Origin: a virus
Virus record (IMG/VR): IMGVR_UViG_3300047160_009070
Location: 1-64,000 of that record
Reading direction: 5' to 3' (one strand)
Length of the DNA: 64,000 bases
The position numbers were made by a program, and so were the translations under genes. Shown here piece after piece: positions 1-7,718 of this stretch. The notes below the pieces were generated by a model. That model searched no databases, was not told where the DNA came from, and was given only the letters and a program-made list of their open reading frames with translations. Within the stretch, counting starts at the first letter, position 1. Each line of letters begins with the position of its first letter.

Positions 1-1051
1 CGAGCCGGATCTGCTGAGGGCACCGTAGCGAACGAGCGAGCCGAGTCTCCGGAGGGCACCGAAGAACATGAGCGAGCCGCGTCGCCGAAGGGCGCCGAAG
101 ATGGAGAGCGAGTCGTGCTGTTCGAGGGCGCCGCACTGTGCGAGCGAGCCGTTCTATGGGAGAGCGCCGTGGGTTGGGAGCGAGCCGAGTTTGACGAGAG
201 CACCGCGCAGGTTGAGCGAGCCGCCACGTACGAGAGCACCGTGGTTTGGGAGCGAGTCGAGTCGCGTGAGGGCATCGAACAACAGGAGCGAGCCGTGACA
301 TTGGAGAGTGCCGATGGAACTGAGCGAGCCGTCGGGTCGTGAGTGCACCGCAGTGATTGAGCGGGCCGTGCTGGCCGAGGGCGCCGAAGGATCAGAGCGG
401 GCCGTAGGGTAGGAGTGCGCCGAAACCGGGGAGCGAGCCGAAGATCTCGAGAGCACCGTGGCCTCGGAGCGAGCCGTCCGACCTGAGTGCACCGTACCTC
501 CCGAGCGAGCCGAGCCGATCGAGGGCATCGAGAGTGAAGAGCGAGCCGAGCAGATGGAGAGCACCGCCGGACTTGAGCGAGCCGTGTAGTGATAGAGCAC
601 CGGGCTGCTTGAGCGAGCCGTGGTAAGTAGAGCGCCGAAACGGGAGAGCGAGCCGTAGATGTGGAGAGCACTGTCCAGCATGAGCGAGCCGAACCAGTTG
701 TGTGTGCCGAGAGAAGGTAGCGAGCCGGCGACAACGAGAGCACCGAGGAACACGAGCGAGCCGCGAAGCTGGAGGGCACCGTCCAGCATGAGCGAGCCGT
801 CACGGCGGAGAGCGCCGTTATCAATGAGCGAGCCGAACGACATGAGAGCGCTGTACTGGGCGAGCGAGCCGCAGAGCCCGAGGGCGCCGAACTGGTAGAG
901 CGAGCCGTTGCAGCCGAGAGCACCGTGATTTACGAGTGTTGAGCCGCCTGGCGTAGAGCGCCGTGGTAGATCAGCGTCGAGTCGAAAAAAGTGAGAGCAC
1001 CGAGTAACCCGAGCGAGCCGCCCAGAGTGAGAGCACCGGAGCAAGTGAGCG
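1..1051 (+). repeat. Dual-repeat interspaced array with 36-nt period (TIGR-like guide RNA array); 5' end truncated by window edge
   Basis: GAGCGAGCCG and GAG(A/G/T)GC(A/G)CCG alternate strictly, separated by variable 8-nt spacers (9 nt if the variable first base of the repeat is counted). I count 58 spacers, i.e. 29 units. Occasional +/-1 nt units break codon phase, so it is not a coding repeat. Confidence 0.85.
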
Positions 1052-1082
1052 TCCTACCATCCCGCTAGGATGAACCGAACAG

Positions 1083-2225
1083 ATGAGCGACATCGAACTC
1101 ACAAACGAGCAGGCGGACGTCGTCGACGACATCCGCGACTGGTTCTGGCGGCTCCAACACCGGCGCGGCACCGACCAGTGCATCACCGTCGGCGGGCTCG
1201 CCGGCACCGGCAAAACGACGTTGGCGAACATGCTGCCGGAACGTCTCGAGATCGCCCGGCACAAGGTCGCCTATTGCGCCTACACCGGCAAGGCCGCCAG
1301 CCGGCTGAACGGCGGATCGACGATTCACCGTTTGATCTACAAGCCGCGTGAGCAGCATTGCGAGAAATGCCCGAAGTTCATCGACAAGGAGCTCGTCTGC
1401 CATGGGGACTGTGCGGACTGCACCACCCACTGGGACAGGATCGACCAGCTGTCCGGGCTTGACCTGGTGATCGTCGACGAGGCGAGCATGGTCGACTACC
1501 GCATCTTCGAGGACTTGACGTCGTTCGGTGTCCCGGTCGTGTGGATCGGCGACCACGGCCAGCTACCCCCGATCTGGGGGACGTTCAACCTGATGGCCGA
1601 CCCGCAGCTACGGTTGGAGACGATCCACCGCCAGCTCGCGGACTCGCCGATCCTGAAGCTCGCGATGCAGGCGCGGCGCAACGGCCGTGTCCCGTTCGGG
1701 TTTCACGGCCCGGGTGTCCTGAAACGCCACCGCAACGGGCATTACCCGCTGTTCGCCGACCTGCTGCTGTGCGGGCGCAACAACACGAGGGTGGCGTTGA
1801 ACGCCGCCGCCAGGGCGGAGCGCGGGTTCCCGGAGGACCGGCCGGTCGCCGGCGACCGTGTGGTGTGTCTGCGCAACAACCATGACCTCGGGGTGTACAA
1901 CGGGATCACAGCCCGCGTCACCGCCTGCACCGAGGACCCGGAGGACGTGGAGTGCTGGAAGCTTTCGGTTGAGCTGGACGGGCCCGAGCGCGAGCGCATC
2001 ACGGACATGGTGTGGAGAGGGCAGTTCGGCCAGCTGAAAACGCTTGCTGACGCCCCCCGCGGCGTTGGGCTGTGGGATTACGGGTATGCGTTGACGGTGC
2101 ATAAGGCGCAGGGTTCGGAGGCGGAGCGGGTGGTGCTGCTGGAGCAGCCGGTCACCGACCCGCGGCGTTGGCTGTATACGGGGATCACGCGAGCTCGCCG
2201 GTCGCTCGAGATCATCGCCCGCTGA
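1083..2225 (+). CDS. RecD/Dda-like SF1B DNA helicase
   Basis: Walker A GLAGTGKTT, AYTGKAA, TIHRLIY, IVDEASMV, IGDHGQLPP, IHRQ, YALTVHKAQGSE, LYTGITRA; Cys-rich insert CEKC...CADC. Confidence 0.93.
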   Translation: MSDIELTNEQADVVDDIRDWFWRLQHRRGTDQCITVGGLAGTGKTTLANMLPERLEIARHKVAYCAYTGKAASRLNGGSTIHRLIYKPREQHCEKCPKFIDKELVCHGDCADCTTHWDRIDQLSGLDLVIVDEASMVDYRIFEDLTSFGVPVVWIGDHGQLPPIWGTFNLMADPQLRLETIHRQLADSPILKLAMQARRNGRVPFGFHGPGVLKRHRNGHYPLFADLLLCGRNNTRVALNAAARAERGFPEDRPVAGDRVVCLRNNHDLGVYNGITARVTACTEDPEDVECWKLSVELDGPERERITDMVWRGQFGQLKTLADAPRGVGLWDYGYALTVHKAQGSEAERVVLLEQPVTDPRRWLYTGITRARRSLEIIAR

Positions 2226-2230
2226 CCGTC

Positions 2231-2256
2231 TTTCAGGTTACACGTGTAACCTGAAA
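2231..2256. promoter_or_regulatory. Perfect 26-bp palindrome with parS-like core
   Basis: TTTCAGGTTACAC|GTGTAACCTGAAA; core GTTACACGTGTAAC versus bacterial parS GTTTCACGTGAAAC; lies just upstream of two ParB-like genes. Confidence 0.7.
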
Positions 2257-2339
2257 ACTAACTGCCTCTATGTTCGTAGGATCAGTCGTTTGCTTGACAG
2301 CGGCTATAGGATGGCTGAAACCAACTACCGGGAGGCTAG

Positions 2340-3353
2340 ATGCCTACTATCAAGGATCGGGACCAAGTGCCCGACAACGCCAAGCCGGTCATCGATCTCG
2401 TCGAGCGCCTCGGCTTCAAATGGGAGTTCGACTATGAGTACGCGGTGCCGAACACCTCGCGGCGCGTCCAGATTCGCGAGGAGAAGCATCACGCTCCCAA
2501 AGGGCAGGTCAGCCGCTACAAGAACGCTCTCAAGCAGGGTGACAAGTTCGCGCCGATCGTGGTCTCGAAGGACGGTTTCATCGTCGATGGCAATACGCGC
2601 AGCCAAGCGTCGTCCGAACTCGGCTACCCGACGATCCAAGCGGTCATCCTCGACCGTCCGTGGGAGGGAACCGGCGCGGAACACCAGAAGGTGCAGCGAC
2701 GCATGAAAATGCTCGGAGCGGGCTTCAACGTTCGCAACGGCAAGGGCATCGACAACGAGGAAATCCGGCTTCTGATCGAGTTCGTCGGCGAAGGGTCCGG
2801 CTATGACGCAACCCGGATTGCAGCTCTGATCGGTGTGACCGCGACTACCGTCACGAACTTCTTCCATGAGAAGACTGCGCGTGAGCGTGCCGAGGAACTC
2901 GGCGTGCGTCTAAACGGTTCGCTTTCCGCCACCCAGCTTCGTGCGTTGGGCAAGGCCAAGGTCAACGACCGCCCGTGGAAGGCTGTCGCGGAACTCACGC
3001 AGAAATCGGGCATGAAGGCCGGCGAGATCGATGATCTCGTCAAGCGCTCGAAGGACGCCGGCGACGACCAGAAGGCACTTAGCCTGATCGAGCACGAGGA
3101 GGAAGTCCGGGCCGACCAAATCGCGGATTACACCGCCAGCGGCAAATCGATACCGCCGGCGGCTGCCCGGCTCAGGCAGAAGCTCGGGACGCTGTTGCAG
3201 ATGGATGCCGACTCCACGTCGATGGTCGAGCGGACCCCTGGCCACATGGAGGAGCATCTCGATGTGCTCCAGAGGTCGCTCGCCATACTTGAACGGGTGA
3301 TCGACGAGCAGCAGCAGGCGATCGACAAGCGCGACGCCGCGGTCGCGGCATGA
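2340..3353 (+). CDS. ParB/Srx N-terminal-domain protein with HTH-like region
   Basis: GDKFAPIVVSKDGFIVDGNTR (ParB-type GxxR arginine patch); ATRIAALIGVTATTV HTH-like; SD GGAGG. Confidence 0.75.
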   Translation: MPTIKDRDQVPDNAKPVIDLVERLGFKWEFDYEYAVPNTSRRVQIREEKHHAPKGQVSRYKNALKQGDKFAPIVVSKDGFIVDGNTRSQASSELGYPTIQAVILDRPWEGTGAEHQKVQRRMKMLGAGFNVRNGKGIDNEEIRLLIEFVGEGSGYDATRIAALIGVTATTVTNFFHEKTARERAEELGVRLNGSLSATQLRALGKAKVNDRPWKAVAELTQKSGMKAGEIDDLVKRSKDAGDDQKALSLIEHEEEVRADQIADYTASGKSIPPAAARLRQKLGTLLQMDADSTSMVERTPGHMEEHLDVLQRSLAILERVIDEQQQAIDKRDAAVAA

Positions 3354-4555
3354 GGCTGTACCCGGGTATGGAGCGCCTCGTCGGCGGCGCAACGGAGGAG
3401 GGCGGCGTAGAGCTGCCCTCCCTCTTCTTCGCGCTTCTGCAGGCGGCGCGCCAAGGACCGCTCGACTTGGACGGTGCGGTGAAAATCATCAAGCCGTCTC
3501 ACGCGAACCAGTTCTCGAGGATGCGCGAGCTCTACTCAGCCAACGGGGCAGATGGCGTGAAGACATGCGTCAGGGTTGTGCTCGGCCAGATGGAGCGACG
3601 CCGACTGCTCTCGCTCGAGGATGACCACTGGATCAGGGGCCCCCGGTTTGACGAGAACAAGCCGATGCTTGTCGTGCCCGGCATGAAGGTGACGCTCACG
3701 GGCGGCTCTGACCTGTCCAACCAGGTCGACCAGATCAGGATGGACTTCGCTCATCTCGCGCGCCTGCTGGAGCCGCACGCCGAAGGTCTTCGCCCGGTCG
3801 ACCGCGGCCATGTGGACGCGATCAAGAAAAGCGTCGAGGACTGGGGACTGCTGCCGGGCTCGCCGATCGTGCGTGACAAGAACGGCCGGATTCTCGCCGG
3901 CCGGCATCGCTTGAGGGCTGCTGAGGAGCTCGGGATCCAGTGGCCGGAGGCTGCGCCGGTCAATGCCGACGATGCTCAGGCGGTGAGGATCGCGATGGCC
4001 TCGAATGTGCAGCGCCCTTGGGGGCGCGCCGACTACAGCCGCCTTGAGAGCAAGGGTCTCGGTTCGACCCGGCAGGAAGCGGTTCGGCGCCTGATCGAGT
4101 TGGCTTTGCTGGAGAAGGCTAATCGCTCGAATCGCTCGATTGCGCGCTTGGTCGGTTGCCGTCACGAAACGGTGCAGCCGGTCCGGGAACGCCTTGAGGA
4201 AACTGGCGAAATTCGCCAGTTTGAGCCGGTGCTCGGCGGCAGGGGCAAGACCGAGCGGACTGAAAGAACCCGCGCTCTTAGGACAACGATCACCGAAGCC
4301 CAGAGAGCCGAGATCGAGAACCGGTTGGAGCAGGGCCAGTCCAAGGCACAGATCAAGAAGGACATGCTGGGGGGCAGCGGTCATTCCTCGTCCGCGATCG
4401 ACAAGATCGCTGCGCGCCGGGAGGGCAGACAGCAACCACCGTCGCCCGCCGTCGAGCCAGAAGTCGAAGTCAAGGTCGAAGTCGAGTCCGAAGTCAAAGA
4501 GCCGCACGCCTGCAGGGGTAAGTGCGAGGTCTGTGGCGAGTTGATCACCGCTTAG
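3350..4555 (+). CDS. ParB-like protein (ParB-N + HTH)
   Basis: HVDAIKKSVEDWGLL..PIVRDKNGRILAGRHRLRAAEELG, ASNVQR, SNRSIARLVGCRHETV; ATGA coupling to the upstream gene. Confidence 0.85.
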   Translation: MRLYPGMERLVGGATEEGGVELPSLFFALLQAARQGPLDLDGAVKIIKPSHANQFSRMRELYSANGADGVKTCVRVVLGQMERRRLLSLEDDHWIRGPRFDENKPMLVVPGMKVTLTGGSDLSNQVDQIRMDFAHLARLLEPHAEGLRPVDRGHVDAIKKSVEDWGLLPGSPIVRDKNGRILAGRHRLRAAEELGIQWPEAAPVNADDAQAVRIAMASNVQRPWGRADYSRLESKGLGSTRQEAVRRLIELALLEKANRSNRSIARLVGCRHETVQPVRERLEETGEIRQFEPVLGGRGKTERTERTRALRTTITEAQRAEIENRLEQGQSKAQIKKDMLGGSGHSSSAIDKIAARREGRQQPPSPAVEPEVEVKVEVESEVKEPHACRGKCEVCGELITA

Positions 4556-5023
4556 ATGACCGAGTTCGATGACGACATGACGCTGGGCGAAGCCCGCGAC
4601 CTGCTGCGAACGCTTGTCAAGAAAGGCCATCACTGCCCGCTCTGCACCCAGTACGCAAGGGTTTACAGACGCCCTCTGAACGCCGGCATCGCCCGGGCGC
4701 TGATCCTGATGTACCTCCGGGGCGGCACGGACTGGATTCACAAGCCAACGGTCCTCAACGGGATCGGTGCCGCGGCGCGCGACGAGAGCATCTCCCGCTA
4801 CTGGGGTTTGACCGAGGAGGAGATCGAGCGTCGCGAGGACGGTGGCCGTGCCGGCTGGTGGCGGATCACCGAGGACGGCGAACGCTGGGTTCGTAGACAG
4901 AGCACCGTCTCGAAGTACGCGCTGATCTACGACCAGCGCTGCTTGGGCTTCGACGGTCCGCAGGTCACGATCGTTGATGCGCTCGGCGACAGGTTCGACT
5001 GGCGTGAGTTGATGAACTCCTGA
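4556..5023 (+). CDS. Hypothetical phage protein with CxxC motif
   Basis: HCPLCTQ motif; abuts previous gene; coding-like GC3 bias. Confidence 0.7.
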   Translation: MTEFDDDMTLGEARDLLRTLVKKGHHCPLCTQYARVYRRPLNAGIARALILMYLRGGTDWIHKPTVLNGIGAAARDESISRYWGLTEEEIERREDGGRAGWWRITEDGERWVRRQSTVSKYALIYDQRCLGFDGPQVTIVDALGDRFDWRELMNS

Positions 5024-5059
5024 TGTAGCCGCTTAGCGGCCTATGATCCCCTCTCGAGC

Positions 5060-5332
5060 ATGGGCGTGTTCGACGAGATCATCGTTCTGGACGAGACGAG
5101 CAGCTTCACCGTCGCCACGATCGCCCGTCCAGGGGGACCGTTGGACGAGGGCCTGTTCGACGCGACCGGCACCTGGGTGCCGGATCCGGGAGCCCGCAAT
5201 CTCGAGGTCCCCGGCTTCGGGATAGACAAGAACGGCTTGCCGTACTACGACACCGAGCAGGTCACGCCCGGGGACGAGTCGCAGTTGTGGATCGATGCGG
5301 TCAACGACCTGATTTGGCTGGAGAAGTCCTGA
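5060..5332 (+). CDS. Small acidic hypothetical protein
   Basis: 90-aa ORF with coding-like codon usage, directly before the depolymerase gene. Confidence 0.6.
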   Translation: MGVFDEIIVLDETSSFTVATIARPGGPLDEGLFDATGTWVPDPGARNLEVPGFGIDKNGLPYYDTEQVTPGDESQLWIDAVNDLIWLEKS

Positions 5333-5333
5333 C

Positions 5334-7718
5334 TTGAGGGTCTATCTGAACCAGGGCGGAGGGGGAGGCGGGGGCACCACCACAGTCGGCGGGGCTCTCA
5401 CCGGCACCTATGGCCGCAGCAGCACCAGCGCCGTCCCTGTCCTGCGGTCGTTCGCGGACCCGATGGACTGGGGGGCGAAGGGCGACGGCATCAACGACGA
5501 CGGGCCGGCGTTCCGTGCCGCGGTCGCTGCGTTGAACTGGAACGGGAAGCTGTGGGTTCCCGCCGGGAACTTCCTCATGGGGTCCGCGTCGACGGTCGGT
5601 GGTGCGATCTACATGACCGACAACCAGGCGGGGATGTTCATCACCGGCCAGGGGGAGGGTGTCACCACCATCACCCTGACGTCGTCATGCCCGCGGTTCT
5701 GCGACTTTCAGAGGACCGCCGACTATCAGACGTTGCAGAACTTGACGATCATGGACATGACCGTCGACGCGAACAGCACCACAGGCGACGACCATGTGGT
5801 GTGCGGCACCCTGCAGTCCGGCTGGTGGTTGGGGCGCGTGAACGTCGACAACGTGAAGGTGTGGCGCGTCACGACCCTCAACGTGTTCTCGAGCAGCCTG
5901 CATTCGAGGATGAGCGTCGGGATCGGCTGTTCGCACATCTCGTCGAACGAGTCCACCCAGAACACGATCACGAACGTCGACATCGGGTGGTGCTCGTTCT
6001 ACGGCGGCCGGTTCGGCGCCACCGTTCAGGGTGCGGTGACGGGCGGCGCGTTCGGCGCGAACGTGTGGTGGGACAGCATCCGCATCCACGACCTCTTCCA
6101 CGACGTGCTGATCACCCCGACGTCCAACATCTCCGGCGCGACCGTCCAACTCGGACAGTCCGGGTGGGGTGGCGTCGGCTCGGTCTGGAACTGCGAAGGC
6201 CGGAACTCGCCGGACGTGACGATCGAGATCGACCAGTGCGTGTTCGTGCTGGTCCAGAAGTGCGTGGCGGTCAACGGCTGGTCGCTGCTGTTCCTGATGA
6301 GCTCCTACCACGACCCGCTGTACTCGAGCGGCGGCAGCTACGCGTCAAGCCAGACGGTGGTGTTCGAGGATTGCACGGTGACGGTCACGATCAACACCGG
6401 CGTCCAGAAGTTCGGGGCGTTCGAGAACACCGGCGCGAGCGGCGTGACGCACACCGCGCTCGGGACCGTGTTCTTCATCCGGCCGGTGTTCAACTGGTCC
6501 AAGGCGACGATCGACGCCGGCGCGTTCAGCAACGGCGCGATGTTCGGCATCAACGCCTCCGACCATCTCGGCTGCAACCTGGTGGCGTTCGTGATCGACG
6601 GGCTCCGCGCGGCCGTGAAGGGGTTCACGTACACGTCGGGGTCCGCCACCACCTTCTCGATGATGCATTTCCTGTTTCCGCTGACGCCGACCGGCGTGAC
6701 GCCGGTCCTGCGGATGCATGACAGCCGGATCGCGGTGTCCGGCACCCAGGGCGGCGCCGGCGGGCTGACGTTCCGCTATGTCGGGATCAACGGCACCGTC
6801 AACGTCGACATCGACGGGTTGACGTGCAATCACGCGATCTCCGGCCAGTCCGGCTATGCGTGGATGATCGACTTTGCGCAGGGCGGGCCGGTGAACACCA
6901 TCAACGGGTCGCAGGCGTTCCCGCGCGGCACCACCACCGTCAACTCGACCGCCGGCTTCCCGACGTCCGGCACCTTGTTCATCGGCGGCGTGACCGGCAG
7001 CGTCACCTACACCGGCCTTGGGGGCGGCGGCACCACTTTCACCGGCTGCACAGGCGGGACGGGGACCGCCGCGAACGGCGCGTTCGTGACGTTGACGTCC
7101 ACCAACAACGTCGTGAACACCAGCGTCACCGGCACCGTCAACAAGCTCCGCGCGATCGGTACATGGCCAGCCGGCGGCCTGTCGAACGGGCTGCATGTGT
7201 GGGACGGCCAGTTCGGGACCGGCGTCGGGGACGTGCCGTACCAGCTGCGGTTCAACGACGCCGACTTCCAGGCGTTCCCGTCCGACGGTCTGGTGCAGAA
7301 CTGGACGAGCGGCAGCGTCCCAGCCACCGTGAGCTGGTGGAACTACCTGGATGTCAACGGAGGGTCGCTCACGAACCCTTGGGGGACCGGCACCGGGGGA
7401 AGCGGCCAGAGCGCCCCTGTGTCCAAGGCGGTCGACTATGCGATGTCGCCGACCGACTCGGTCGTGAAGGTGACGGTCTCCGGCAAGACGATCACTTTGC
7501 CGTCCGGCGTGTCCGCCGGCCAGCGGGTGTTCTCGTGGGCGGTCGTGAACGCCTCCAACGGCGGCACCAGTGTGATCCCTCCCGGCAGCCAGGTCATCAA
7601 CAACTGGTCGGGAGGCGGGCAGTACACGTCCAGCATCCCGCTCACGATCGCGGCTGGCGCCCAGGCCGTGGTGTTCATGATCGATCCGGACAACACCGCC
7701 AACTTCATGATCATCTAG
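5334..7718 (+). CDS. Pectate-lyase-like beta-helix protein (tailspike/depolymerase)
   Basis: DWGAKGDGINDDGPAFRAAV...LWVPAGNF...ITGQGEGVT, typical start of Pectate_lyase_3 beta-helices; Gly/Thr/Asn-rich; TTG start. Confidence 0.8.
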   Translation: MRVYLNQGGGGGGGTTTVGGALTGTYGRSSTSAVPVLRSFADPMDWGAKGDGINDDGPAFRAAVAALNWNGKLWVPAGNFLMGSASTVGGAIYMTDNQAGMFITGQGEGVTTITLTSSCPRFCDFQRTADYQTLQNLTIMDMTVDANSTTGDDHVVCGTLQSGWWLGRVNVDNVKVWRVTTLNVFSSSLHSRMSVGIGCSHISSNESTQNTITNVDIGWCSFYGGRFGATVQGAVTGGAFGANVWWDSIRIHDLFHDVLITPTSNISGATVQLGQSGWGGVGSVWNCEGRNSPDVTIEIDQCVFVLVQKCVAVNGWSLLFLMSSYHDPLYSSGGSYASSQTVVFEDCTVTVTINTGVQKFGAFENTGASGVTHTALGTVFFIRPVFNWSKATIDAGAFSNGAMFGINASDHLGCNLVAFVIDGLRAAVKGFTYTSGSATTFSMMHFLFPLTPTGVTPVLRMHDSRIAVSGTQGGAGGLTFRYVGINGTVNVDIDGLTCNHAISGQSGYAWMIDFAQGGPVNTINGSQAFPRGTTTVNSTAGFPTSGTLFIGGVTGSVTYTGLGGGGTTFTGCTGGTGTAANGAFVTLTSTNNVVNTSVTGTVNKLRAIGTWPAGGLSNGLHVWDGQFGTGVGDVPYQLRFNDADFQAFPSDGLVQNWTSGSVPATVSWWNYLDVNGGSLTNPWGTGTGGSGQSAPVSKAVDYAMSPTDSVVKVTVSGKTITLPSGVSAGQRVFSWAVVNASNGGTSVIPPGSQVINNWSGGGQYTSSIPLTIAAGAQAVVFMIDPDNTANFMII

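Follow-up and report, generated by a model that had tools for sequence, protein, structure and literature searches.

A long dual-repeat TIGR array at the contig end of a high-GC tailed phage, and the nuclease-less TasA-type protein encoded beside its relatives

The stretch of DNA analysed here, referred to as the window, comprises bases 1–64000 of a 95,319-bp IMG/VR viral record. Its first 1051 nucleotides are best read as a dual-repeat TIGR array from which the 5′ side is missing, carried by a high-GC tailed phage; it would work as published for the SpTIGR, TaTIGR and TasA systems. We give this reading a probability of about 90%. The array is a further example of the already described TIGR-Tas systems and not a new kind. 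An earlier note on this DNA, which was made from the letters alone, had proposed a TIGR array or a relative of one. This identity is upheld by the architecture, the motif grammar and the truncated terminal edge repeat of the array, together with the Tas-family genes that lie beside the same repeats in other viral contigs. The record is classed as linear with a CheckV completeness of 82%, and its G+C content is 66%, close to the 65% of the array. Most large ORFs of the window are located on the + strand, among them a tape-measure-sized ORF of 2536 aa.

Anatomy of the array

Dual-repeat TIGR arrays consist of two alternating repeats of 8–12 nt with spacers of ~9 nt (Faure et al. 2025, PMC12045711). 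Processing yields 36-nt tigRNAs with both ends at the midpoint of an edge repeat. [quoted passage not shown] A rho-independent terminator after the array is typical but does not define the class (Faure et al. 2025, PMC12045711).

The array of the window (1..1051, + strand) was laid out in a 36-nt register and parsed repeat by repeat. It contains 29 units of approximately 36 nt, each of which runs from the edge repeat GAGCGAGCCG through an 8-nt spacer A and the loop repeat GAGRGCRCCG to an 8-nt spacer B. Both repeats are 10 nt long, and the loop repeat varies as GAG[A/G/T]GC[A/G]CCG. The 29 edge repeats alternate strictly with 29 loop repeats to give 58 spacers, and thus the number of units and spacers, the alternation and the 36-nt period reported in the earlier note are all borne out. 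A spacer is 8 nt long, or 9 nt when the conserved G is counted in, as is done for SpTIGR. Edge-to-edge spacing was 36 nt in 22 cases, 37 nt in one and 35 nt in one, and one spacer has 9 nt (near 340) and another 7 nt (near 627). The repeat columns carry 1.5–2.0 bits of information, against 0.05–0.5 bits for the spacer columns. The sequence GAGCGAGCCG is found 21 times within 1–1051 and once in the remaining 63 kb, compared with a mean of 0.81 copies and a maximum of 4 in shuffles. Both repeats conform to (G)AG....CCG, starting with box D and ending with box C.

The two ends of the array differ. Its 5′ side is lost at the contig end, where the edge repeat CGAGCCG (1..7, +) lacks its first 3 nt, so that the contig begins within the array. 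The 3′ end is closed by a truncated edge repeat, GAGCG (1047..1051, +), which follows the last spacer B and is succeeded by unrelated sequence. Before this end lies a degenerate zone (934..992, +) with one 7-nt spacer and two edge repeats that carry 3-nt insertions, GAGTGTTGAGCCG and CAGCGTCGAGTCG, at 934–946 and 972–984. Degeneration of the repeats toward the 3′ end, as noticed earlier, is hence real. The + orientation was assigned from the direction of the AG...CC(G/A) motifs, the same-strand tas gene of the relatives and the truncated GAGCG end. One spacer B, TCCAGCAT, is used twice (window 664–681 and 772–789), with differing spacers A, TAGATGTG and CGAAGCTG.

Related arrays in other viral contigs

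A viral-contig collection was scanned with the pattern edge-N8-loop-N8-edge. This gave 55 places (L004–L058) in just over 50 contigs, many of which hold several arrays. The ORFs located within 5 kb of these related arrays were then clustered into families, of which a single one was dominant: a protein of ~270–300 aa, typically ~280 aa, which is encoded at 46 of the 55 places. We refer to its gene as the tas-family gene. It lies a median of 12 bp from the nearest array, either upstream or downstream, with arrays often flanking both sides, and it is always encoded on the strand that reads GAGCGAGCCG. The next three ORF clusters were shadow ORFs over the same gene, and no other family occurred at more than five places, so that no conserved accessory gene was found near the related arrays. 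Nine places are without a tas-family gene; two of them are in contigs that have it elsewhere, and at five the array lies at the end of the fetched locus. No Tas homologue was detected by hmmsearch near the arrays L022:13057–13380 and L039:4840–5324, but the fetched flanks are short on one side, and these two are hence no evidence for arrays that lack Tas.

The related arrays follow the same layout as that of the window. Their units are 36 nt long in 746 cases, 37 nt in 55, 35 nt in 13 and 38 nt in 9. Approximately 10% of their repeats finish in CCA instead of CCG, and the CCA/CCG fraction of the edge repeats tracks that of the loop repeats (r = 0.81 over 52 related arrays). Among the 59 related arrays that finish in a loop repeat, 40 end with exactly N8 + GAGCG, as the array of the window does, which identifies GAGCGAGCCG as the edge repeat.

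In some contigs, five distinct arrays with this repeat type lie within 10 kb, with genes interleaved (L026:848–9867 and L028:3691–9270). Whole units with intact pairs of spacers A and B are common to the arrays L027:1958–2202, L029:1178–1783, L042:412–963 and L043:2437–3022, in which their order and position vary. In L029, L042 and L043, unlike in L027, the unit that directly precedes the truncated edge repeat is conserved. Such sharing of units looks like shuffling by recombination between repeats and not like the one-end addition of CRISPR arrays. The spacers of 84 arrays, taken from the window and L004–L058, avoid the dinucleotide TA (789 observed versus 1030 expected) and show an excess of TGA (812 versus 643) and of GA. 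This bias may mirror the make-up of the targets.

The partner protein of the related arrays

Single sequences of the tas-family protein matched Pfam Transposase_20, the C-terminal region of IS110 transposases, and in the PDB they matched TasR (9MTY, E = 1e-9) and TasH (3e-8). A profile built from 24 members gave its best match to TaTIGR-TasR (9MTY, 2.4e-23), followed by TasH (2.4e-11) and the IS621 bridge recombinase (4e-5). An AlphaFold (AF2) model of the protein was all-helical, with a pLDDT of 84 and a pTM of 0.78. When this model was submitted to Foldseek, the top ten matches were chains of TIGR-TasR (9MTY) and TasH with TM scores of 0.5–0.7, and recombinases of the IS110 family came next. 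Neither an HNH nor a RuvC domain was found, the longer members of the family included, and Transposase_20 was the only Pfam match. In the absence of both nuclease domains, the partner of the related arrays is a nuclease-less TasA-type protein. The Tas ORFs of L026 and L028 are ~120 aa longer at the N-terminus, and this extension has no Pfam match.

Precursor tigRNAs of dual-repeat systems are processed by a Tyr/His loop, and TasA is an RNA-guided repressor of transcription (Xu et al., preprint 10.64898/2026.09.09.750476). The tas-family proteins bear a C-terminal motif, PPKPY..GHAH, in which Y271 is nearly invariant and H278 is invariant. It resembles RPLY..LGHT of SpTasH, a pairing made by eye and not by structural alignment. 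From its sequence, PPKPY..GHAH could be the Tyr/His loop by which the precursor tigRNAs would be processed.

The recurrence of this gene also bears on the idea that the repeats of the window form some other non-coding array unrelated to Tas, be it a set of protein-binding iterons, a centromere-like site or an atypical CRISPR. In favour of this, the gene beside the array of the window is of replication type, a helicase. However, tas is the only gene that recurs beside arrays with these repeats, TIGR is matched base for base in both repeat grammar and terminal truncation, and CRISPR repeats are single and far longer. We consider such an array very improbable. Rfam contained no matching family and returned nothing relevant.

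Lack of selection on a peptide

The array might also be read in the opposite direction, as the gene of a minus-strand tandem-repeat protein. Two long minus-strand ORFs with hexapeptide-like repeats, GSLxxxGALxxx and ARSxxx, cover it (3–923 and 154–1044), and its period is a multiple of three. The longest open run of 309 codons was matched in just 2.5% of spacer shuffles, and stop triplets on the minus strand are depleted in the related arrays (415 versus 542 ± 18 in spacer shuffles). This depletion, however, is explained by the avoidance of the TA dinucleotide: TAA, TAG, TTA and CTA are depleted (z of −5 to −8) while TCA is not, and TAA and TAG on the plus strand are struck equally.

The reading frame is likewise not maintained. 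Within the array of the window, indels of +1 near 340 and −1 near 645 shift the frame, and the ORFs remain open by switching to another repeat peptide, an openness owed only to stop-poor minus-strand frames. The related arrays commonly contain units of 37, 35 or 38 nt, and in many of the 84 arrays of this repeat type, the longest included, every one of the six frames is interrupted by stops. All ten bases of the repeats are conserved with no synonymous variation, though the Tas proteins of these contigs are only 40–74% identical to the reference, and the 8-nt inserts between the repeats carry almost no information. The conservation of the repeat bases, the breaks in frame and the pattern of stops indicate selection on the nucleic acid and not on a peptide. 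A coding tandem repeat was therefore rejected, as the frame is not kept open, unit lengths deviate from multiples of three and the repeat codons show no synonymous variation; that these ORFs are real genes is extremely improbable.

Search for the tas gene in this phage

The earlier note had seen no Nop- or IS110-like gene in the window, and this was found to extend to the whole 95-kb record. Pfam Nop, Transposase_20, the Tas protein of a relative and the A1 profile gave no match in the record, and hmmsearch against its six-frame translation detected no Tas homologue, while two control loci scored 1e-115 and 2e-58. Position 1 is the contig end, and with no such gene in the record the effector could lie beyond it, where the earlier note had placed it. 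As the record is ~82% complete and position 1 falls inside an edge repeat, the partner gene is probably past the contig end. This is most simply explained by a break of the assembly inside the array, with tas belonging to the missing part; the gene would most likely stand just upstream of position 1, in the unassembled sequence. The pairing of array and protein in this phage is thus drawn from the relatives.

The array could instead be an orphan, in a phage that truly has no tas gene, and be either a relic or served in trans by a Tas protein of the host, a prophage or a co-infecting phage. The failure to find a Tas homologue in 95 kb with passing positive controls is in line with this possibility, as are the decay of the 3′ units and the unrelated helicase gene on which the array abuts. 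Against it, the usual position of tas is out of view in this record, and tas adjoins the array at most of the related places, the majority of the others having the gene elsewhere in the contig or the array at a locus end. A relic is also disfavoured by the repeats of the window array, most of which are intact. We regard an orphan array as unlikely. A further version, which we hold to be similarly doubtful, is that the array acts as a stand-alone library of 29 guides for the TasA of a host, a prophage or a co-infecting relative, or that read-through into a helicase operon couples the guides to early expression. If true, such a library could redirect the Tas of a competitor or host.

Neighbouring genes

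A gap of 31 nt (1052..1082, +) separates the array from the next gene, and its sole feature is a 5-bp inverted repeat (TCCTA...TAGGA). That gene (1083..2225, +) encodes a RecD/PIF1-like SF1 helicase (AAA_30, 5e-20; UvrD_C_2, 3e-14; PIF1, 4e-12). It is placed outside the TIGR system; though it is on the strand of the array, it is not conserved beside the related arrays. No terminator-like site was found on the + strand within 1–2400. Since this helicase gene follows only 31 nt on and on the same strand, transcriptional read-through from the array into it is plausible. Downstream of the helicase are an ORF at 2340–3353 with no Pfam match and an ORF at 3350–4555 with a weak, sub-threshold Pfam match to HTH_38.

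Near relatives of this region were also sought. Megablast of window 1–6000 against a phage collection gave no match and hence no near relative there, the helicase protein had no relatives in viral and metagenome contig collections, and an exact 40-nt pattern across the array–helicase junction was absent from metagenome contigs.

Comparison with published systems

The closest published array is that of SpTIGR from Salicola phage CGphi29, which has the edge repeat AGCGAGCCA, the loop repeat AGACAACCA, AG as box D and N8A spacers, and whose tigRNA takes the form AGCCA-N8A-AGACAACCA-N8A-AGCG (PMC12045711 supplement). SpTIGR-TasH (TasH structures 9VZX, 9W04 and 21KL) and the array of the window are both phage-borne and of dual-repeat type with a 36-nt unit. 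Eight bases of the SpTIGR-TasH edge repeat (AGCGAGCC-) are identical in the edge repeat of the window, the loop frame AGA-- ACC- is common to both, and box D is AG in both. In each, a spacer consists of eight variable bases and a ninth that is conserved, and the cut is predicted in the middle of the edge repeat. They differ in the end of box C, which is CCG in the window and CCA in SpTIGR, and in the conserved ninth base of the spacer, which is G in the window and A in SpTIGR. In addition, SpTasH has an N-terminal HNH domain, whereas the partner protein of the relatives has none, and the record of the window has no visible partner gene.

In the lack of a nuclease, the relatives are like FpTIGR-TasA of Flavonifractor plautii and MbTasA, in which a solo Nop domain accompanies a dual-repeat array. 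Box C of FpTIGR is CCN (PMC12045711 supplement). This tolerance of any third base is a further likeness to the arrays described here, and RNA-guided DNA binding with repression is expected by the same comparison. The repeat sequences of FpTIGR-TasA and MbTasA are unlike those here, and high-GC viral contigs are the source of the relatives described here. TaTIGR-TasR, the best sequence match of the relatives' partner protein, shares with TasH the top places in the fold comparison. It has the same tandem-spacer architecture, but its RuvC domain and UG/CCA motifs are absent here. The array of the window, with at least 29 units, is long compared with the usual 5–15.

The CCG-N9-AG motifs had earlier been taken as a sign of a distinct subtype. 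This suggestion is not supported by the comparison: the AG box D, the edge repeat and the N8A spacers of SpTIGR, the CCN box C of FpTIGR and the CCA-ending tenth of the repeats in the related arrays place the motifs within the published range. The UG/CCA motifs with which they had been contrasted are those of TasR arrays.

CRISPR arrays and TIGR arrays both have short conserved repeats and unique spacers, and both are processed into guides. TIGR differs by its two alternating 10-nt repeats, its paired 8-nt spacers and a guide that pairs with both DNA strands, and it is without cas or adaptation genes. A CRISPR array was rejected for the window, as it needs a single repeat of 23–55 nt with spacers of similar length, while two 10-nt repeats and 8-nt spacers were found.

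Proposed guides and their targets

By homology with the published systems, the + strand of the array would be transcribed into a long precursor from a promoter beyond the contig start. Both spacers are flanked by AG (box D) and CCG (box C) motifs, to which a dimer of the Nop-domain Tas protein is expected to bind, and the precursor would be cut within each edge repeat, between GAGCG and AGCCG. The resulting guides would be of 36 nt with the form AGCCG-N8-GAGRGCRCCG-N8-GAGCG, so that the last predicted tigRNA would have GAGCG at 1047–1051 as its 3′ end. The register of the published 36-nt tigRNA is the same as that in the array of the window. In such a guide, the two spacers are predicted to pair with opposite DNA strands, spacer A with one and spacer B with the neighbouring segment of the second, which would give a specificity of 16–18 bp. 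The likely outcome is RNA-guided DNA binding with transcriptional silencing and not cutting, as the partner family has no nuclease domain and TasA is known to repress transcription.

In the published TaTasR substrates, the sequence of spacer A runs without a gap into the reverse complement of spacer B. Targets were therefore searched as spacer A, a gap of 0–3 nt and the reverse complement of spacer B, alongside three control geometries. For 26 guides of the window, no site with one mismatch or less was present in the other 94 kb of the record, and the sites with two mismatches occurred in chance-level numbers that were no different from those of the control geometries. With these 26 guides and in these 94 kb, the phage does not target itself. 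Likewise, 888 distinct guides of the related arrays were compared with 614 kb of related DNA, which gave 1–3 matches per geometry where approximately one is expected, and none was significant.

Significance

This study adds a long array, with at least 29 guides and from a high-GC phage, to the TIGR-Tas catalogue. The edge and loop repeats of SpTasH are common, almost base for base, to nuclease-less TasA loci at 55 places in viral contigs. Such near-identity of the repeats in TasH and TasA loci suggests that TasH and TasA proteins may be able to use each other's guide scaffolds. The approximately 900 natural guides gathered here can serve in the search for the natural targets of TIGR systems.
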